A stretch of DNA of 64,000 nucleotides from an uncultured Candidatus Binatia bacterium (GTDB lineage Bacteria > Desulfobacterota > Binatia > UBA9968 > CAXXLF01). The stretch is from positions 2,368,001-2,432,000 of the forward strand of contig OZ244621.1 in the NCBI GenBank assembly GCA_965218425.1, read 5' to 3'. Positions 27,606-38,575 of this stretch are shown here, piece by piece (position 1 is the stretch's first letter; every line of letters starts with the position of its first letter). The notes beneath the pieces are model-generated. The model did no database searches. It saw nothing but the letters and a program-made list of their open reading frames with translations, and was not told the DNA's origin. The translations under genes were made by a program, and so were the position numbers.

Positions 27606-27733
27606 GGGGTCGGAGAGGGGGAGTGGGGCTTTGACTGGTTGCTCAGTGCGGCGGCGGAACAATGGATCGGTAGAGCAGTGGTTCGCATTGTCGCCTCCCC
27701 CGCTCCACTTCTCCATTGCGCCAATGCTCTAAA
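27606..27733. repeat. inverted 8-bp-period repeat arrays
   Basis: GCGGCGGA-ACAATGGA-TCGGTAGA-GCAGTGGT faces GCTCCACT-TCTCCATT-GCGCCAAT-GCTCTAAA; a G-rich octamer run follows the OMT stop. Confidence 0.55.
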
Positions 27734-27752
27734 ATTTTGCTTGGCAAAATTT

Positions 27753-27828
<76 letters not shown>

Positions 27829-27925: not shown

Positions 27926-29620
27926 CTAGGCGCCCTTCAGCATCTCTTCCGCGTGCCGTTTGGTTTGTTCGGTGATCTTGATTCCCCCTAGCATCCGGGC
28001 AATCTCATGAACCTTTTCCCTCTGCGCCAGTTTCCTCACTTTGGTGAAGGTTCGACCCTTGGCCACCTCTTTTTCCACCGCGAAATGAGAGTTTGCCAGG
28101 GCTGCCACCTGTGGGAGGTGAGTTACGCAGATCACTTGATGGGTTTCGGCAACTTTTTTAAGTTTGTTCCCCACCATCTCGGCAACTCTCCCACCAATAC
28201 CTGCGTCCACCTCATCGAAAAGGAGAGTTGGGATCTCCCCTTTAGTCAACACCAATGATTTTACGGCCAACATGACCCGTGAGAGTTCTCCTCCCGAGGC
28301 AATCTTGGCCAAGGGTTTGACGTCCTCGCCAGGATTGGGAGCGAAGTAGAGCTCAACCTGATCGATGCCCTCTTCCGTTAGCGTTTTTCCATCCATGGAG
28401 AAGGGAGACTCTTCCCTATCCTCTTTTCCGTCCAAGAAGCGAACCTCAAACTGGGTGCGGCTCATACCTAGACCATCGGTCTCTTTTTGGAGATCCTTGC
28501 TCAAGTTTTTTGCAACACGTTTTCGTTGCGCCGACAGGGCTTCGGCTTCCCCCCACGCTACCCGCCGGTTCATTTCAAGGGTGTGCTCAAGGTCCGCGAT
28601 CCCCTCTTCGCCCTGGCCTAAAGCGGCAAGCTCTGCTTCCGCTTTCTCACCGAGGCTGATAATGTCTTCTATGGATCCGTTGTATTTTCGCTTTAGACGG
28701 TTCAGCTCAGCAAGGCGATCGTCCAATCGTTCCAGTGACTGGGGGTCAAATTCCACGCGACTCTTGTAGCCCCGGAGTTTCGAGGTTGCCTCCTCCAATT
28801 GAGCAAGGGCTGAATTGAGCAGTTCCACCGTCTCGGTAAGGGACGGATCAATGGCCGCTAACTCCTGTAAGCGAGACAGGACTCTTCCCAGCCTGCTCAC
28901 CACGGAGTCTTCCGCTTCGTAAAGGATCTCTTCTCCCTCCTGGCAGCCCGTGTAGAGTCTCTCCGCGTGGTTGAGGATATTCTTCTTTGCCTGGAGCTCC
29001 TCTGCTTCACCCGTCCGCAATGACGCCCGTGAAATCTCTTCCACCTGCTCTCTCAGGAGCGTCTCCTCTTGCAACTGTCTCTCCAGGGCATCCTTTGCCC
29101 GTGTCAGTCGGTCCCAGACACTCCGGAATTCTTGGAATCCCTTTTTCATCTCTGCGGCTTTATCCTCCAGGCCTCCATAGGCGTCGAGTAGTAGGAGATG
29201 ACTTTCAGGATTCAGCAGGCCGTGATGCTCGTGCTGACCGTAGATGTGAATGAGGCAACTGCCCAATTCAGACAGAAGGCTTAGGGCGCTAAGGCTTCCG
29301 TTTAAGTAGATGCGGTTTTTTCCCGATCGGCTGATAATCCTTTTGACGATCAGTTCACCTTCACTGGCGTAATCCGCTTCTTGGAGTTTGTCATCTAGCG
29401 GCTGAGGCAGGGAATCGAAAAGAGCCTCCACCGTGGCTTCCTCCTCCCCCTGGCGAATGATGTCCGAAGAGATCCTCCCTCCGAGGATGAGACCTAGGGC
29501 GTTCAAGACGATGGTCTTTCCCGCGCCCGTCTCTCCGGTCAATACGTTCAGCCCAGGACCCAACTCCAATGTGACCTGGTCAATGATTGCGAAGTTCTTG
29601 ATGCGTAGCTCTCGCAGCAT
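27926..29620 (-). CDS. recN: DNA repair protein RecN
   Basis: LRIKNFAII, LTGETGAGKT, ASGGELSRVMLA, FDEVDAGIGG, QVICVTHLPQVAA. Confidence 0.97.
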   Translation of the reverse strand: MLRELRIKNFAIIDQVTLELGPGLNVLTGETGAGKTIVLNALGLILGGRISSDIIRQGEEEATVEALFDSLPQPLDDKLQEADYASEGELIVKRIISRSGKNRIYLNGSLSALSLLSELGSCLIHIYGQHEHHGLLNPESHLLLLDAYGGLEDKAAEMKKGFQEFRSVWDRLTRAKDALERQLQEETLLREQVEEISRASLRTGEAEELQAKKNILNHAERLYTGCQEGEEILYEAEDSVVSRLGRVLSRLQELAAIDPSLTETVELLNSALAQLEEATSKLRGYKSRVEFDPQSLERLDDRLAELNRLKRKYNGSIEDIISLGEKAEAELAALGQGEEGIADLEHTLEMNRRVAWGEAEALSAQRKRVAKNLSKDLQKETDGLGMSRTQFEVRFLDGKEDREESPFSMDGKTLTEEGIDQVELYFAPNPGEDVKPLAKIASGGELSRVMLAVKSLVLTKGEIPTLLFDEVDAGIGGRVAEMVGNKLKKVAETHQVICVTHLPQVAALANSHFAVEKEVAKGRTFTKVRKLAQREKVHEIARMLGGIKITEQTKRHAEEMLKGA

Positions 29621-29638
29621 CTTCAAATAAAGCGTTTC

Positions 29639-30490
29639 TTATCTTTCGCCCCACTTTAGTCTGTTCCTCAGGATGTCAAAGTAGCCACGGGTGGGGGTCT
29701 CAACCAGGGAAACCGGCACTCCAAAATCCCGAGCTTCCACAACATCGCCGTCAGTCAATAGCATGGCTTGCAGCCCGTCCGGGCTCAAAAATACGGTGTC
29801 CTCACCTGAGCGCAAGGTAACGCGGACGGTGGATTTGTTGGAGATCACAATTGGGCGATTGGTAAGCATGTGAGGGCAAATGGGTGAAAGGATGATGGCT
29901 CCTAGGGACGGGTAGAGAATAGGTCCTCCCGCCGCCATGGAATATGCCGTGGATCCTGTTGGAGTGGAGATAACTAGACCATCGGCCCTATAGGTGCAAA
30001 GATAATCCTTTCCCACGTAGGTCTCCAAGCCAATGATCTTCGAGCGTGCCCCTTTAGTGATGACCCCGTCATTGAGCACGCGAAATTTTTGCGGTTTTGC
30101 CTTCTTGCTGTAGACGCGAAGCTCCAGAGTCATTCTTTTCTGTACAGAGAAATTCCCCTTCAAGGTATTCTCAAGCACGGATTCCAACTCGTCGGCGGCA
30201 ATTTCCGTGATAAAACCCAACCCCCCCAGGTTTACGCCCATAATCGGGACCTCGGGTCTTTCCACGAGTCGTGCGATGCTGAGAAAAGTCCCGTCTCCAC
30301 CAAGAACCAGGATCAAATCGGCTGATTTGGCCATGGTCTGTTTTTCGGAGGCCTTTCCGCCGGATTCGGTGAAGCCCGGTTCCACCAGGACCTGCTTCCC
30401 TTGTTTCTTGAGCCAGGGAATGAGCCACTTTGCGATTTCCACCGCCTTCGGCTCTCCATGCTTGGCCACCAATCCTACGGTCTTGATCAT
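29639..30490 (-). CDS. nadK: NAD kinase
   Basis: LGGDGTFL, GVNLGGLGF, DGLVISTPTGSTAYSMAAGGP. Confidence 0.96.
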   Translation of the reverse strand: MIKTVGLVAKHGEPKAVEIAKWLIPWLKKQGKQVLVEPGFTESGGKASEKQTMAKSADLILVLGGDGTFLSIARLVERPEVPIMGVNLGGLGFITEIAADELESVLENTLKGNFSVQKRMTLELRVYSKKAKPQKFRVLNDGVITKGARSKIIGLETYVGKDYLCTYRADGLVISTPTGSTAYSMAAGGPILYPSLGAIILSPICPHMLTNRPIVISNKSTVRVTLRSGEDTVFLSPDGLQAMLLTDGDVVEARDFGVPVSLVETPTRGYFDILRNRLKWGER

Positions 30491-30640
30491 TGACTCCCTT
30501 TCCCTCCAGCCGGACATTAGCATACCGGGAGAAAGGAAGTCCATGGAGCCAGCGGAAATTAGGGTACCTACCTACCCTCGACTTCCCCCCTCATTATTCG
30601 TATACAAAAGCAAAGCTCTAAGCAGGGGGGGAGAGAAGAA

Positions 30641-31285
30641 TTGGACAGCAAAGAGTTGTTGGCAATCATTCATAATCGGCGCAGTGTCAGGGTCTACAAG
30701 ACCGGCAAGGTGACGGAGCAACAATTGGAAACAATCCTGGAAGCCGCCCGTTGGTCTCCTTCAGGTGCCAACACGCAGCCATGGGAGCTCGTGATAACCC
30801 GTGACCGGGAAAAGATGAAGAAAGTGCGTCAGATCTATTCCAACGAATGGAAGCAACGGAAACTGGAAGATCCAGTCCATTACAAAGGGCTAAAAAAGGA
30901 CTACGTGGGAGACGTGAGTGTCTTGGTGTTGGTCTGTGGAGACCCGCGGACCATGGGGGTCTATCTTACCACGCGCCAACCGGGGGACCGGGAAAAGCTC
31001 TTTCAGGCCAGCGTGGCAAACGCCGTGGAGCACTTGATGCTTATGGCGGCAAGCATGGGTTTGGGGACGGTTTGGGTCTCGGTTCGCCAGGAGGTGGAGG
31101 CAGACCTGAGAAAGCTGTTTAACGTACCAGAGCCCCTTCGACTCCTCTGGGTGGTTCCCGTTGGTCACCCACGCGTTTTTCCCAGAGCCAGACCGAGACG
31201 GGAACTATCGGCCTTTGTGCACCGGGAAGGTTACGATCCTAAGAAGCTACGCAACGAACGGGACATCCGAGCCTGGCCCAAGTGA
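30641..31285 (+). CDS. nitroreductase family protein
   Basis: RRSVRVY, EAARWSPSGANTQPWE, LMAASMGLGTVW. Confidence 0.9.
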   Translation: MDSKELLAIIHNRRSVRVYKTGKVTEQQLETILEAARWSPSGANTQPWELVITRDREKMKKVRQIYSNEWKQRKLEDPVHYKGLKKDYVGDVSVLVLVCGDPRTMGVYLTTRQPGDREKLFQASVANAVEHLMLMAASMGLGTVWVSVRQEVEADLRKLFNVPEPLRLLWVVPVGHPRVFPRARPRRELSAFVHREGYDPKKLRNERDIRAWPK

Positions 31286-31345
31286 CCCCTAGACTAGAAG
31301 ATGCGAAGCTTATTGCCCGCGCCCTGAATACTTGCGCCCCCAGGA

Positions 31346-31487
31346 GAGTGAGGGCTCAGGGGCCCGCCCCTCAGCGGGAGCCGATGGGTCTATGCCTTGA
31401 GGCCCTGTCATTTGATTCGGCGGGTCAGGCTGGCATGCGCCTAAAGTATCGGACGTCTCCCTTTCTTCGGTACAAGCCCCTTCACCC
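31346..31487 (-). ncRNA. candidate structured ncRNA (rod-like with internal bubble, 6S-like topology)
   Basis: Nested complementarity GGGTGA/TCACTC, GGGCTT/GAGCCC, GGGAG/CTCCC, CCGAT/ATCGG, ATGCC/GGCAT, CCTG/CAGG. G-U pairs favour the minus strand; a TAGATT -10-like hexamer lies just upstream. Confidence 0.35.
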
Positions 31488-31634
31488 ACCACAATCTACG
31501 ACGAAGGGGAGCGAAGCAAGACCCCGAAGCCCTAAGGTAACGGTGATGGAGAATGTGCGAACTTCATTCTCCCTAGTCGAAAAGGCCGACGAGACATTTC
31601 GCACCACACTTTCTGAAGGAGAGCCAACCATCCG

Positions 31635-31673
31635 TTGACACCGCATAGGTTGAGGAGCTATAGTGAAAATCCG
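31635..31673 (+). promoter_or_regulatory. sigma70-like promoter upstream of the kdsB-pyrG operon, with TCCG start region
   Basis: TTGACA (31635-40), N18, TATAGT (31659-64); TCCG lies 6-9 nt after the -10 box. Confidence 0.65.
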
Positions 31674-31705
31674 TAATGACCCGGCGGGGACATTACGGTT
31701 TTTTT
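31671..31705 (+). terminator. intrinsic terminator / attenuator in the kdsB leader
   Basis: CCGTAATG-acccggcgggga-CATTACGG followed by T7. Confidence 0.8.
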
Positions 31706-31776
31706 ATTGTGACCATGAGACAACTGGACATTGAGTATTGCCTAGATCGGGTCTCCACCCTTAGGAACCGAATCTG

Positions 31777-32526
31777 GTGATGACCGTTGTCGCAATCATT
31801 CCGGCCCGATACGGCTCCACACGTTTCCCTGGAAAACCCTTGGCAACCATCGGCGGCAAGCCCATGGTGCAGCATGTCTATGAAAGCGCCTCTAGGCCCC
31901 GGGGTCTGGACCAGGTCTTGGTGGCCACGGATGACCGTCGAATCCTGGAAACGGTTAGGGGCTTTGGTGGGGAGGCGGTGCTCACAGCCATTGATCACGC
32001 CAGCGGAACCGACCGGCTGGCAGAGGTGGCAAAGAAAATAAGATCCCGATGGGTGATCAACGTGCAGGGTGATTTACCGTTTATCCGTCCTCAAACCATC
32101 ACCCGCACCCTCAGGGCACTCCAGCGTGAAAGTTCTATAGTCATGGGGACCGCCAGGGTTCCCATCACTAGCAAGGAAGAGCTGCTAAATCCCAACGTGG
32201 TCAAAGTGGTCACCGATGCCGAGGGATTCGCCTTGTATTTCTCTCGTGCTCCCATACCTTTTAGGCGGACGCCACAGGTACATCAAATGAAAGGTAGAGA
32301 AGTCCTGGGGCATCGTCATCTAGGCATCTATGTCTACCGGCGGGACTTTTTACTCAAGCTCTCCCGTCTCCGGCCCGTTCCTTTGGAGCTCGCCGAAGGG
32401 TTGGAACAGCTACGACCCATGTCCCACGGATATCGCATACGAGTAGTGGATGTGGATGAGAATTCAGTTGAGGTGGATACCCCGCAGGATTTGAAAAGAG
32501 CCGAAAAGTATTTAAAGAACTTGTAA
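31777..32526 (+). CDS. kdsB: 3-deoxy-manno-octulosonate cytidylyltransferase
   Basis: IIPARYGSTRFPGKPL, SGTDRLAE, INVQGD, ALYFSRAPIP, VDTPQDL. Confidence 0.97.
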   Translation: MMTVVAIIPARYGSTRFPGKPLATIGGKPMVQHVYESASRPRGLDQVLVATDDRRILETVRGFGGEAVLTAIDHASGTDRLAEVAKKIRSRWVINVQGDLPFIRPQTITRTLRALQRESSIVMGTARVPITSKEELLNPNVVKVVTDAEGFALYFSRAPIPFRRTPQVHQMKGREVLGHRHLGIYVYRRDFLLKLSRLRPVPLELAEGLEQLRPMSHGYRIRVVDVDENSVEVDTPQDLKRAEKYLKNL

Positions 32527-32532
32527 GGTTAG

Positions 32533-34188
<1,656 letters not shown>

Positions 34189-34209
34189 CGCTCCGCTAGC
34201 TTCGATACC

Positions 34210-35046
34210 ATGTCGAGTAAGGGTGTGAAAATTGGCAGGCTTGAGATCGGTGCTGGAAAGCCTCTCGCCCTTATGGCTGGACCCTGTGTGATCGAAGGAC
34301 GGGAAGCGGCCCTCCACCATGCTTCCCTACTCAAGGAGGTCACGGAGCGGGTTGGTGTGGCCTTTATCTATAAATCCTCCTACGACAAAGCCAATCGAAC
34401 GTCTCTGGAGTCCTATCGAGGCCCGGGCATCGAAAGAGGTCTGGAGATCCTGGCGGAGGTGAAGGAGAAGGTCGGCGTCCCAATCCTCACCGATGTCCAC
34501 GAAAAAGAGCAGGTGAAATTGGTGAAAAAGGTGGCCGATATCCTCCAGATTCCGGCATTTCTCTGCCGTCAGACCGATTTCGTCATGGAGGTGGCGCGGT
34601 CCGGTAAGGCGGTCAATGTTAAGAAGGGACAGTTTCTCGCCCCCTGGGACATTCAAAATGTCGTCGACAAAATCATCTCCACCGGCAATGAAAAGATCAT
34701 GGTGACAGAGCGCGGGGTTTCATTCGGTTACAACAATTTGGTTGCGGACATGCGGTCCTTGGCCGTGCTTCGGGAACTGGGCTATCCTGTGGTGTTCGAT
34801 GCCACCCACAGCCTCCAACTTCCAGGAGGTACAGGAAAGGCATCGGGGGGGCAACGCCAGTTCATTTCTAGCCTGGCCCAGGCGGGGGTGGCGGTGGGAA
34901 TCGATGCGGTGTTCATGGAAGTCCATGAGGACCCGGACCGGGCGCTGAGCGATGGTCCCAATTCACTTCCCTTGAAAGAGTTGGAAGTCCTGCTCAGGCG
35001 TCTCAAAAAAATCGACACTGTCGTGAAAGATGACTTGAGGACTTGA
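34210..35046 (+). CDS. kdsA: KDO-8-phosphate synthase
   Basis: AGPCVIE, YDKANRTS, QIPAFLCRQTD, VFDATHS, SDGPN. Confidence 0.98.
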   Translation: MSSKGVKIGRLEIGAGKPLALMAGPCVIEGREAALHHASLLKEVTERVGVAFIYKSSYDKANRTSLESYRGPGIERGLEILAEVKEKVGVPILTDVHEKEQVKLVKKVADILQIPAFLCRQTDFVMEVARSGKAVNVKKGQFLAPWDIQNVVDKIISTGNEKIMVTERGVSFGYNNLVADMRSLAVLRELGYPVVFDATHSLQLPGGTGKASGGQRQFISSLAQAGVAVGIDAVFMEVHEDPDRALSDGPNSLPLKELEVLLRRLKKIDTVVKDDLRT

Positions 35047-36026
35047 CCGTGAAAGAAAGTGCAAAAATTCTCAAACGTGCGAAGGAAGTTCTGGATGTGG
35101 AGGCGAATGGAATTCTTTCCCTTAGGGATCAACTGGATGAAAGCTTCGTGCGGGCCGTGGAGCTTCTGTTTCGTTGCAAGGGGAAGGTGGTGGTGACGGG
35201 ACTGGGAAAATCGGGACTCATTTGCCGCAAGATCGCAGCGACTCTGTCCAGCACGGGAACGCCTTCCTTTTTTCTCCATGCCGGGGATGGAATCCATGGG
35301 GATCTGGGCATGATCATGAAGGGGGACGTGGTCCTTGCGGTTTCCAACAGCGGTGAGACCGGAGAGCTACTGAAGTTGCTTCCCATCATCAAGAGACTGG
35401 GGTTAAAACTCATTGCAATGACCGGCCACCCCAAGTCCGCCTTGGCCCAGGCGGCAGATGTCGCCCTCAATGTGGTCGTCAAGGAGGAAGCGTGTTCCCT
35501 TGGCCTTTCGCCAACCACAAGTACCACCGCGGCGCTGGCCATGGGTGACGCCCTGGCAGTGGTGCTTTTGAGCGAGAAAAATTTCAAAGAGGAGGACTTC
35601 GCACTCCGACACCCAGGGGGAATTCTGGGACGTAGGCTTCTTCTCCATGTGGAAGATCTGATGCATCAAGGCGAAGATCTACCCCTGGTGGGTCAGGATG
35701 CCCCCATGAAGGACACTCTGCTGGAGATTACTTCGAAACGTTTGGGGATCACCGGAGTGACCGACAACCGTGGCCAGCTAGTGGGTGTAATTACCGACGG
35801 AGATTTGAGAAGAGGTCTCAACAACAAAGGGGACATTTTCCGTCTCAAGGCGAAAGATTTAATGACCAAGAATCCGAAGACCGTAACTTCCGATGAACTT
35901 GCCTCCCGGGCCCTGGCCCTGATGGAGAGGCATTCTATTACCTCCCTGTTTATTCAGCAAAACGGAGACACAAGGCCGTCGGGTGTCATACACATCCATG
36001 ATCTTTTGAAAGCCGGCATCGCTTAA
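35043..36026 (+). CDS. kdsD: arabinose-5-phosphate isomerase (KpsF/GutQ)
   Basis: GLGKSG, HGDLG, SNSGET, PTTSTTA, HPGG, two CBS domains. Confidence 0.95.
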   Translation: MTVKESAKILKRAKEVLDVEANGILSLRDQLDESFVRAVELLFRCKGKVVVTGLGKSGLICRKIAATLSSTGTPSFFLHAGDGIHGDLGMIMKGDVVLAVSNSGETGELLKLLPIIKRLGLKLIAMTGHPKSALAQAADVALNVVVKEEACSLGLSPTTSTTAALAMGDALAVVLLSEKNFKEEDFALRHPGGILGRRLLLHVEDLMHQGEDLPLVGQDAPMKDTLLEITSKRLGITGVTDNRGQLVGVITDGDLRRGLNNKGDIFRLKAKDLMTKNPKTVTSDELASRALALMERHSITSLFIQQNGDTRPSGVIHIHDLLKAGIA

Positions 36027-36034
36027 TCCCTACC

Positions 36035-36571
36035 GTGAGGCCCATTCCAGCAAAGGTCCGAAAGGGGGCCCAGAGGATCAAACTCCTCCTCCTCGACGTG
36101 GATGGGGTCATGACCGATGGGGGTATTGTCATGAACCACCAGGGGGAAGAGATTAAGCGTTTCGACGTGCGTGACGGACACGGGATCAGATTGTTAATAG
36201 ACGCTGGAGTTCAGGTGGGTTTGGTGACGGGACGATCCTCACGGGTGGTGACCCATCGAGCCAAGGACCTCGGTATTCGAATAGTCTACCAAAAAGCCTT
36301 TGACAAACTCCAGGCCTATCAGGAGATAAAGAGGAAGACCGGATTGTCGGATGGCGAGATTGCCTACGTTGGGGATGACGTCGTAGACCTGCCGGTTCTA
36401 CGGCGGGTTGGTCTGGCCATGGCGGTAAAGGATGCGGATGAAAACGTAAGACGTAGAGTGGATTATGTCACAGGGCAAAAAGGGGGAAGAGGGGCGGTTC
36501 GGGAGATAGTGGAACTACTACTGAGGGCGCAGGGAAGGTGGGAGCCGTTGATAAAAAAGTACTTTGAATAA
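36035..36571 (+). CDS. kdsC: KDO-8-phosphate phosphatase
   Basis: LDVDGVMTDG, FDVRDG, YVGDDVVDL, GGRGAVRE. Confidence 0.95.
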   Translation: MRPIPAKVRKGAQRIKLLLLDVDGVMTDGGIVMNHQGEEIKRFDVRDGHGIRLLIDAGVQVGLVTGRSSRVVTHRAKDLGIRIVYQKAFDKLQAYQEIKRKTGLSDGEIAYVGDDVVDLPVLRRVGLAMAVKDADENVRRRVDYVTGQKGGRGAVREIVELLLRAQGRWEPLIKKYFE

Positions 36572-36680
36572 TGGGGTCTTATGTGATCAATGTGAAGTTC
36601 GAGCAAATTCCATGCCCGCCGGCTTTACAGGTTTCCCGAATAATGATATTTGATATTTTCCGAGTGTACGCGGAAAGACC

Positions 36681-37289
36681 ATGGTTAGACCCAAAAAATT
36701 AATAATCCTGTCCGTAATATCGATTTCGTTGGGGGCTGTTGTCTATAAGGTCGCCGAGACCCTTTGGCTGCAAAAAGCCATGGAGTTCCAGGAAGACCCA
36801 ATTAAGATTTTGGACCTTGTGCCCCAGCCTTCCCTTCAGTTGAAGAAGTTCCGCCGAAGCAGAGTCGAAGAGGGACGCAAGGTTTGGGAGATTACCGGTG
36901 ATGAGGCGGTTTATATTAAGGCAGACAGGGAGGCGGTGATTACGGGTCCCAGGCTGGTCTTTTACAATCAAAACGATGAAAACGTGGAGGTCCGTGGCGA
37001 CGTAGGACATCTCTATTTCAACGAGCGGAAAATGGATCGACTGGAGCTGCGCGGCGAGGTGGAAATTTATTACCAAGGGTTTATCCTCAAAACCAATGAG
37101 ATTGTCTACCATCAGAATAAAAACCAGGTCATCTCAAGGGGTAAGGTTGCCATGAAAGGGAAGGGGTTGGATTTAGAGGGTGTAGGAGCAGAGATCTCTC
37201 TGAAAAACTCAAGGCTTCGACTCAGAAATAAGGTGAAAACCAGGATTAGGCCAGGCCTGCTTGAAAAACAGGGGGTAACTGCGGGTTGA
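36681..37289 (+). CDS. lptC: LPS export ABC transporter periplasmic protein LptC
   Basis: N-terminal TM anchor, GRKVWEI, beta-rich body; located between kdsC and lptA. Confidence 0.8.
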   Translation: MVRPKKLIILSVISISLGAVVYKVAETLWLQKAMEFQEDPIKILDLVPQPSLQLKKFRRSRVEEGRKVWEITGDEAVYIKADREAVITGPRLVFYNQNDENVEVRGDVGHLYFNERKMDRLELRGEVEIYYQGFILKTNEIVYHQNKNQVISRGKVAMKGKGLDLEGVGAEISLKNSRLRLRNKVKTRIRPGLLEKQGVTAG

Positions 37290-37837
37290 GAATGGATAGG
37301 GGGTGTTCCAAGCTTCAAAAACTATGTGCAATGGCGTCCATGGGTTTTGCCCTGTTGGCTTACTATCCTAATGGAGAGGCGGCAGGCGTTGAAACGGCGC
37401 AAACACAGACTGGTTTGGAGGGGACCATCACCATTACCTCCGATCGTATGGAATTGGACCAGAAGAAGAACTCCATCGTCTACATCGGCAATGTGGTTAC
37501 TTCCCGTGGGAACGTCACCATTAAAAGCGATACTCTCACCGCCGTCTACAATCCAGAGATGAAACGTCTCACGGGGGTGGTGGCCGAAGGGAATCTCGAG
37601 ATAACCCAGGGAGATCAAATTGCCACGGGGACCAAGGCGGTATTCAACAGTGAAAGTAATTCCGTTGCCCTCACGGGCGACCCTGTGGTGCGGCAAGGAA
37701 ACAGTCGGGTTTCGGGGTGCCGTATTGTTTTGTTCATCGGCGAGGAGCGGGGTGTCGTGGATGGGGGATGCCAAAGAGTGAAGGCGGTGATATTTCCGAT
37801 GAACTTGGAAGGCAGTGAGCGAATCGAAGAGCAATGA
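37286..37837 (+). CDS. lptA: LPS transport periplasmic protein LptA
   Basis: ITITSDRME, YIGNVV, AEGNLEITQG, LTGDPVVRQG; synteny. Confidence 0.88.
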   Translation: MRMDRGCSKLQKLCAMASMGFALLAYYPNGEAAGVETAQTQTGLEGTITITSDRMELDQKKNSIVYIGNVVTSRGNVTIKSDTLTAVYNPEMKRLTGVVAEGNLEITQGDQIATGTKAVFNSESNSVALTGDPVVRQGNSRVSGCRIVLFIGEERGVVDGGCQRVKAVIFPMNLEGSERIEEQ

Positions 37838-37852
37838 TCCAGGAAGCAAGGA

Positions 37853-38575
37853 ATGAGTGTTCTGAAAGCAGAGAGAGTCACCAAGAGCTATCACGGTCGA
37901 CGGGTCGTGGATCAAGTCAATCTAGAAATCAATGGTGGAGAAGTGGTGGGCTTGCTAGGCCCCAATGGTGCGGGAAAGACGACAACGTTTCATATGATGG
38001 TGGGTTTGGTGCGACCCGATGAAGGAAAGGTGTTTCTAAACGGGGAGGATATGACCTCAGCCCCCATTTACCAGAGGGCTCGGGCCGGCATTAGCTACCT
38101 CCCGCAGGAATCCTCTGTGTTCCGGCGACTGACGGTGGAAGGAAACTTGATGGCTATTCTTGAAACACTCGACCTCAGCCGGGAAGAGCGGGAAAATCGT
38201 TCTAAGGAACTCATGCGGATGCTTGGGGTTTCTCACTTGAACAAGCATAAGGCATTTACCCTTTCCGGGGGGGAGCGGCGCAGGGTAGAGATTGCCCGAG
38301 CGTTGGTACTTTCCCCGTTTTTTATACTTCTGGATGAACCCTTCACGGGGGTGGACCCCATTGCTGTGTCGGAAATTCAAAAAATTATCCGCAAACTGAT
38401 CGCGGGCAGTATTGGAGTTCTCATCACGGATCACAACGTTCGCGAGACCATGGGCATCTGCGACCGAGCCTATATCTTGAGCGATGGGATGATCCTGGAG
38501 GAAGGAAGCCCCGAAAAGATTGCCTCCAGCTCCAAGGCCCAAAAAGTTTATCTTGGTGAAGGATTTAGGCTCTAG
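37853..38575 (+). CDS. lptB: LPS export ABC transporter ATPase
   Basis: GPNGAGKTT, YLPQESSVFR, LSGGERRRVEIARAL, LITDHNVRE, VYLGEGF. Confidence 0.97.
   Translation: MSVLKAERVTKSYHGRRVVDQVNLEINGGEVVGLLGPNGAGKTTTFHMMVGLVRPDEGKVFLNGEDMTSAPIYQRARAGISYLPQESSVFRRLTVEGNLMAILETLDLSREERENRSKELMRMLGVSHLNKHKAFTLSGGERRRVEIARALVLSPFFILLDEPFTGVDPIAVSEIQKIIRKLIAGSIGVLITDHNVRETMGICDRAYILSDGMILEEGSPEKIASSSKAQKVYLGEGFRL

Follow-up and report, generated by a model that had tools for sequence, protein, structure and literature searches.

Results

The window, a 64,000-nucleotide stretch of DNA from an uncultured Candidatus Binatia bacterium, holds a plus-strand run of Kdo and Lpt genes that includes pyrG. Its first gene, kdsB (31780..32526), encodes CMP-Kdo synthetase (NCBIfam TIGR00466 above cut-off), with a reading frame open from a GTG at 31777. 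The CTP synthase gene pyrG follows at 32542..34188 (NCBIfam TIGR00337 above cut-off), and kdsA, a kdsD-like isomerase gene, kdsC, lptC, lptA and lptB (34210..38575) are likely the rest of the operon. Judged by spacing, kdsB-pyrG-kdsA-kdsD-kdsC-lptC-lptA-lptB are likely transcribed together, and pyrG is the likely target of the switch that we predict below.

Between the operon promoter and the upstream nitroreductase gene lie two pieces of a dispersed non-coding repeat (31341-31490 and 31508-31625). Matches of at least 100 nt number 27 for the first piece, this locus included, and six for the second, at ~70-87% identity; the repeat has no Rfam match, and no IS110-type transposase was recognised next to it in a simple motif check. 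Farther upstream, at ~27700-27790 on the minus strand, tRNA-gene-like sequence, noticed in the open reading frame translations, sits between an O-methyltransferase gene and recN. At a separate locus, L503 (G000:C1:3617452-3618465), an aspartate transcarbamylase match within a 647-aa open frame is broken by a short gap, which suggests an insertion or a fusion.

Directly ahead of kdsB, a promoter and a terminator hairpin share the same few bases. A sigma-70-type -35 box (TTGACA, 31635..31640), evident both by direct reading and in a promoter scan, is followed after an 18-nt spacer by a -10 box (TATAGT, 31659..31664), GAAAA (31665-31669), and the predicted start region T6-C7-C8-G9-T10 (31670..31674, numbered from the -10 box). 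T6-C7-C8-G9 is exactly the start string of enteric pyrC. C7 is also the first base of the hairpin (31671..31698), whose 8-bp stem has the arms CCGTAATG (31671-31678) and CATTACGG (31691-31698); above an A-A mismatch, the 12-nt loop between these arms contains a further 3-bp stem and a 4-nt terminal loop. The partners of C7 and C8 are the two G's that adjoin the U tract, which runs for seven U's (31699-31705) and continues with AU to 31707, the predicted main 3′ end, giving a 37-nt RNA from C7. The whole plus-strand element, promoter included, measures ~70 bp, and the kdsB ATG lies 81 nt past the stem. The earlier note had read the same anatomy from the letters, TTGACA-N18-TATAGT, T6-C7-C8-G9, an 8-bp stem from C7 and T7, with C7 and C8 paired to the G's at the U tract; each part is confirmed by position and the pairing geometry holds. 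Its estimate of ~70 nt to kdsB also agrees with our 71-74 nt from the U tract (GTG 31777 or ATG 31780). Four contig runs confirm the sequence of the region.

The 5′ C's close the hairpin, and a start at G weakens it. Predicted folds reach -16.5 kcal/mol for the C7 transcript (z -4.5; none of 200 shuffles was equally stable), -13.9 kcal/mol for the C8 transcript and -11.9 kcal/mol for the G9 transcript. The hairpin is thus stable and carries a U tract immediately 3′, as intrinsic terminators do. The promoter is the top promoter-like site within 29000-35000, scoring 11 of 12; the terminator rule of the promoter-region scan, which allows loops of up to 8 nt, overlooks this hairpin. The genome has 289 terminator-like hairpins, and no other has its first base at position 7 behind a consensus-like promoter; the combined promoter and hairpin pattern has a single match in this genome.

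We looked for the element in related kdsB leaders. Within the order it was present in 27 of 41 leaders, drawn from 58 full-length kdsB matches as the best 30 and 11 others; one leader was cut by a contig end and 13 were without it. All 13 loci of family f3 lack the element, mostly with a purine at position 6 or 7. A strict pattern matched 20 of 21 f1 and f2 genomes, once each, and none of 16 f3 genomes. Across the class it matched 22 of 251 Binatia genomes (reversed control, 0 of 251), an under-count in that other Binatia orders have TATAAR-type -10 boxes; its only match outside the order, L031, is not at kdsB. The earlier note had predicted that the -10/YCCG spacing would be conserved and the stem would covary, and the related leaders bear this out. 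The -10 box always lies 5 nt from YCCG, whether the promoter spacer is 17 or 18 nt, and TTGACA occupies all 19 rows of alignment A1 (one unaligned locus has TTGACT). In the 19 aligned elements the 8 pairs are 100% paired; three pairs show two-sided changes, all in the upper stem, and the bottom three are invariant. Two relatives carry insertions between the U tract and kdsB, of ~230 nt in L003 (genome G002), where the promoter-terminator is undisturbed, and of ~135 nt at the same place in L019.

Outside the order, the element was found in 16 of 39 gene-anchored loci of other Binatia orders, spanning 9 of 17 families. Their -10 box is often TATAAR-type and often without its last T, and its register is ambiguous in L294 and L299. 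A GTDB-wide pattern scan, in which 119 of ~130 loci were covered, comprised 61 kdsB-linked loci, two further Binatia elements at contig ends and 56 others. Among these 56, 23 non-Binatia loci had a closed hairpin (-8 kcal/mol or better), and 7 of the 23 head pyrG operons. In L080 (phylum of genome G280) and L086 (Polyangiales) the element stands directly before pyrG, with no kdsB between. Five Sumerlaeota matches precede LysM/YkuD-hisG-kdsB-pyrG, with pyrG on the same contig in L089, L133 and L137 and its linkage deduced from identical first genes in L087 and L167. When Sumerlaeota were anchored on that first gene, 9 of 66 loci carried the element, four of which the pattern scan had missed. 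From sequence, then, the predicted element is found in four groups of mostly uncultured bacteria ahead of the CTP-synthase operon, and pyrG rather than kdsB is the common predicted target, being itself the first gene in L080 and L086.

Its distribution is patchy. None of 36 more distant Sumerlaeota loci had the element, most being without a TTGAC..TA promoter in the fetched stretch; neither did 30 other loci from the phylum of the Polyangiales genome, nor, within 1.5 kb of pyrG, 29 other loci of the G280 phylum. In 401 genomes of the phylum of G448, a relaxed pattern matched 13 times against 10 in the reversed control and gave no pyrG link outside Binatia; its sole kdsB-linked matches were in two Binatia genomes found before. 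One pyrG locus from each of five further phyla (L311-L315) showed no element by eye. In a quick pyrG tree (80 of 81 rows, Binatia rows partial, and L222 labelled as a non-carrier although it is truncated), each carrier groups with its own lineage and the carrier label changes 11 times. The tree gives no direction, and repeated gain and an old origin with losses both fit it.

Other arrangements were seen as well. The pyrG or kdsB promoters of L193, L198, L203, L216, L226-L229, L245 and L282 carry YCC(G/A) at positions 6-9 but are not followed by a terminator. At L097 and L141 the pattern of the element, its hairpin closed and its U tract present, immediately precedes tRNA clusters, and L097 continues to tuf.

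To separate fixed from free positions, we compared 51 unique hairpins, leaving out L294 and L299 for their ambiguous -10 boxes. A pyrimidine always occupies position 6 (T in 28, C in 23). T stands at position 10 in 50 of 51 and pairs with A in 19 and with G in 31, and positions 11-14 covary. The script required CCG..CGG, so the invariance of C7-C8-G9 in this set is partly built in; in a preceding sequence-agnostic hairpin scan, every hairpin found behind these promoters began with CCG or CCCG. Hairpin length ranges from ~16 to 72 nt and loop sequences are unrelated across lineages, leaving only the foot and the register fixed. Among the 289 terminator-like hairpins of the genome the foot is CC..GG in 44 and CCG..CGG in 11. 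Since the strongest terminators prefer a GC foot and not GG, termination alone does not explain the fixed 5′ CC.

A register-free metagenome scan (117 of 118 loci analysed, 38 with short flanks) addressed the register without presupposing it. All 15 kdsB-linked matches, Binatia-like throughout and hence kin, have their first C at position 7, and none of 92 matches at other positions is kdsB-linked. Thirty of these 92 are closed CCG..CGG hairpins with U tracts before unrelated genes, at positions 4-10, and 16 of the 23 non-Binatia closed-hairpin matches from the GTDB-wide scan likewise lie near promoters of unrelated genes. The layout alone is therefore not diagnostic. Seven loci of this kind (L408, L423, L424, L428, L433, L470 and L476), in which a CCG..CGG hairpin and U tract overlap the promoter start region at positions 4-10, recur in more than one contig; by their N-terminal sequence, we take their genes to be rplM-, tgt- and ilvC-like.

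How could a two-base choice at initiation reach the terminator? Transcription most often begins at position 7, within a usable range of 6-9; it favours purines, and the site chosen moves with NTP levels (PMC5730371). In the window a consensus promoter presents only pyrimidines at 6-8 and G9 as the first purine, with a U tract directly behind the hairpin. A recent bubble-edge rule describes terminators as GC(U)7RU, with GC as the optimal foot (bioRxiv 10.64898/2026.05.29.728758). The site that fits it best here is GG-U7-AU ending at 31707, which agrees at -11G, U7 and RU and has G instead of C at -10; the G's at -11 and -10 are the partners of C8 and C7. The C7 stem accordingly reaches -10 and the G9 stem -12, and at U5/U6 the G9 stem reaches -9, where the hybrid contains CGG. 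Hairpin completion requires at least two upstream hybrid pairs to be melted, and duplexes that halt at the hybrid edge terminate poorly (bioRxiv 10.1101/2022.08.30.505822). From these stem lengths and the melting requirement we infer that a C start would terminate and a G9 start would read through.

We propose that the element is probably a CTP/GTP-sensing attenuator, a start-site switch of the pyrC type whose output is intrinsic termination. It would need neither a protein nor an alternative RNA fold, as the start nucleotide itself would build or break the terminator. With ample CTP, RNA polymerase would start at C7 (or at Y6 or C8), the preferred distance, and the RNA would pair down to -10 and be released at ~35-37 nt. 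With scarce CTP the start would move to G9, as at enteric pyrC. That RNA would still fold, but at the best site its stem would end at -12, leaving two rG-dC pairs in the hybrid, and polymerase would read into kdsB-pyrG. The resulting PyrG would restore CTP and close a feedback loop, and termination would have to stay somewhat leaky, since the same transcript carries the Kdo and Lpt genes.

The proposal draws on gene-anchored conservation, a register tied to the -10 box, pyrG as the common gene and covariation in the upper stem. Against it, the G9 hairpin loses only ~4 kcal/mol (medians -17.9 versus -13.9), and termination may persist with a G9 start at U5/U6, where its stem reaches -9. The -10 position is G and not the optimal C, kdsB is a CTP consumer with no obvious benefit from being raised at low CTP, the distribution is patchy, and family f3 does without the element. 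Of the earlier note's interpretation, a start switch wired to a terminator, the anatomy, conservation and pairing geometry have held up, and the mechanism itself continues as a prediction.

The genes upstream bear on simpler readings of the hairpin. That it merely ends nitroreductase transcription, as the earlier note had considered, we reject: it lies 385 nt past the nitroreductase stop codon, inside the start region of the promoter, and in relatives the upstream gene differs or runs divergently. By a crude automatic codon score, 46 loci (one more could not be indexed) divide into 23 with a divergent upstream gene, about half, 19 with a co-directional one and four uncalled; clear divergent cases with an intact element are L003, L007, L008, L012, L020 and L258. 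In the window itself the upstream gene is co-directional. A broader version dispenses with sensing: every start would fall at G9 or be spread over several sites in fixed proportions, and the hairpin would either terminate constitutively but leakily or insulate the operon against upstream read-through while letting its own transcripts pass. The strong preference for purine starts, the similar hairpins at the promoters of unrelated genes (rplM, tgt, ilvC) and the co-directional upstream genes of the window and 19 of the 46 loci would all suit it. Yet the element stays intact in the 23 loci called divergent by that crude score with its four uncalled loci, and an insulator needs no pyrimidines at 6-8 and no fixed register, nor need it be tied to pyrG across four lineages whose operons begin with three different genes. 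We therefore consider a start without sensing unlikely.

The start could also switch in response mainly to GTP or UTP instead of CTP. A fall in GTP, as in the stringent response, would force C starts and shut an LPS/CTP operon, or U6 and U10 would read UTP. The pyrC switch does sense the CTP/GTP ratio, the operon is mostly concerned with envelope synthesis, and 50 of 51 elements retain U10, 31 of them as a U-G wobble, so that a G9 start would need GTP and then UTP. Position 6 is nonetheless C in 23 of the 51, and the elements of L080 and L086, directly before pyrG without kdsB, fit feedback by CTP. This makes a primary GTP or UTP signal quite improbable in our judgement.

Loop sequences speak to a third alternative, in which a protein antiterminator or a trans-acting RNA opens the terminator, or the 35-nt RNA has a function of its own once released. 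Within family f2 the loop is fairly conserved, and a leader with a terminator and no antiterminator, that of rimP, has been read as protein-controlled (PMC2965389). Across lineages, however, only the foot and register are held constant while hairpins of ~16-72 nt carry unrelated loops, and Rfam offers no family match to the element, only a chance match to SurA (E 2). A trans-acting partner or a functional released RNA thus appears very improbable.

The distance from hairpin to start codon separates termination from translational control. Other Binatia orders contributed 16 elements, and in 13 of them (a count that excludes L307, where the script matched a second CGG) an in-frame kdsB ATG lies 6-11 nt behind the stem foot. 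This places the GG at Shine-Dalgarno distance with the U tract as spacer, which is the pyrC geometry. One could thus suppose that the hairpin acts on translation, like that of pyrC, with the U tract a mere spacer between Shine-Dalgarno sequence and AUG; L309 and L355, which keep a CCG-footed hairpin without a U tract, would fit. This ribosome-binding-site-hiding geometry is absent from the window, with its ATG 81 nt past the stem, and the start codons of the order, Sumerlaeota, L080 and L086 lie tens to hundreds of nt away while the U tract is kept. For the element as a whole, we give a purely translational output only the faintest of chances.

Some relatives lack parts of the terminator. L282, L261 and L226 have YCCR with neither hairpin nor U tract. 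Promoter-proximal hairpins without a U tract, several of them CCG- or CCA-footed, precede kdsB-pyrG or the Sumerlaeota operon in L309, L355, L304, L286, L291 and L264; these may be forms of the switch that act on translation or have decayed. Termination may thus be a later addition to a translational switch like that of pyrC.

Discussion

The kdsB-pyrG leader of this Binatia genome combines a promoter and a predicted intrinsic terminator in such a way that the first transcribed bases would form the foot of the hairpin. Taken further, we see a little better than an even chance that such elements form a bacterial attenuator class that works without riboswitch, leader peptide, protein or slippage and precedes CTP synthase in four or more lineages of phylum rank. 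On this view the class descends from translational switches like that of pyrC, by conversion of the spacer between Shine-Dalgarno sequence and AUG into a U tract, and several Binatia orders still show this stage. If the mechanism is correct, the element would be a very small attenuator, ~70 bp including its promoter, that turns on a 2-nt decision. It would also let one gauge, in a natural setting, what the last two stem pairs contribute to intrinsic termination, and could be put to use as a small reporter of CTP/GTP. Although the hosts are uncultured, the near-consensus promoter makes the claim testable with E. coli polymerase.

The closest relatives in initiation are pyrC and pyrD of E. coli and Salmonella. 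At high CTP/GTP these start with two extra C's that close a 5′ hairpin; the CTP start falls 6-7 nt after the -10 box, and both C's are lost when transcription begins at a G two bases on (PMC6524683). The window element shares the sigma-70 promoter, the C's at the preferred start distance, the G two bases later and the closure of a hairpin by the 5′ C's. Whereas the pyrC hairpin hides the ribosome-binding site, the one described here is 81 nt from the ATG, has a U tract behind it and serves a pyrG operon.

In gene and signal, the nearest comparison is pyrG of B. subtilis, whose attenuator depends on initiation at GGGC, on slippage that adds G's and on a poly-G antiterminator helix (PMC7039003; Rfam RF02371). 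The two share the gene, a leader terminator, which in the window is an intrinsic one predicted from sequence, and the CTP signal with its sensing by RNA polymerase at initiation, both of which are predictions for the window. Unlike the B. subtilis leader, positions 6-10 read YCCGT and not GGGC, and there is neither a slippage site nor an antiterminator. We rejected Bacillus-type G slippage, as no GGG start exists, and RF02371 had no match in this genome while the B. subtilis control matched. If the proposal is right, it would add a third bacterial way of coupling CTP to pyrG expression. In E. coli codBA and upp, a start-site switch under UTP control is coupled to non-productive U slippage (PMC12709180). 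There too the choice of start decides whether a full-length transcript is made, but the abort is reiterative U addition at initiation with no terminator hairpin, whereas the window element has one.

The earlier note had remarked that it knew of no description of start-site switching combined with transcriptional attenuation. That remark needs narrowing: nucleotide-sensitive start choice with early termination has been published for yeast IMD2 and proposed for URA8, the yeast CTP synthase gene, and we found no bacterial form in print. In the open-licence literature we found no bacterial start-site choice that gates an intrinsic terminator, though specialist reviews may hold an earlier mention, and pyrG is absent from the main text of an attenuator survey (PMC2965389). 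What appears new is the bacterial form, in which a 2-nt shift would remove the foot of an intrinsic terminator.

Yeast IMD2, URA2 and URA8 join start-site choice to Nrd1-Nab3 termination; at URA8, RNAs that begin with C are terminated by Nrd1, and a start shift at low CTP has been proposed, for which mutants give mixed support (PMC8923462, PMC3335523). The logic that URA8 and IMD2 share with our proposal is that a start with the product nucleotide yields a short, terminated RNA, and shortage shifts the start to produce mRNA. In yeast, Pol II skips the Nrd1-Nab3 signals by scanning over tens to hundreds of bases, whereas here the shift would be 2 nt and the predicted terminator is a factor-independent hairpin with a U tract. 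Hence, if it works as proposed, the element would be a bacterial counterpart of the URA8/IMD2 logic, reached by a different physical route.
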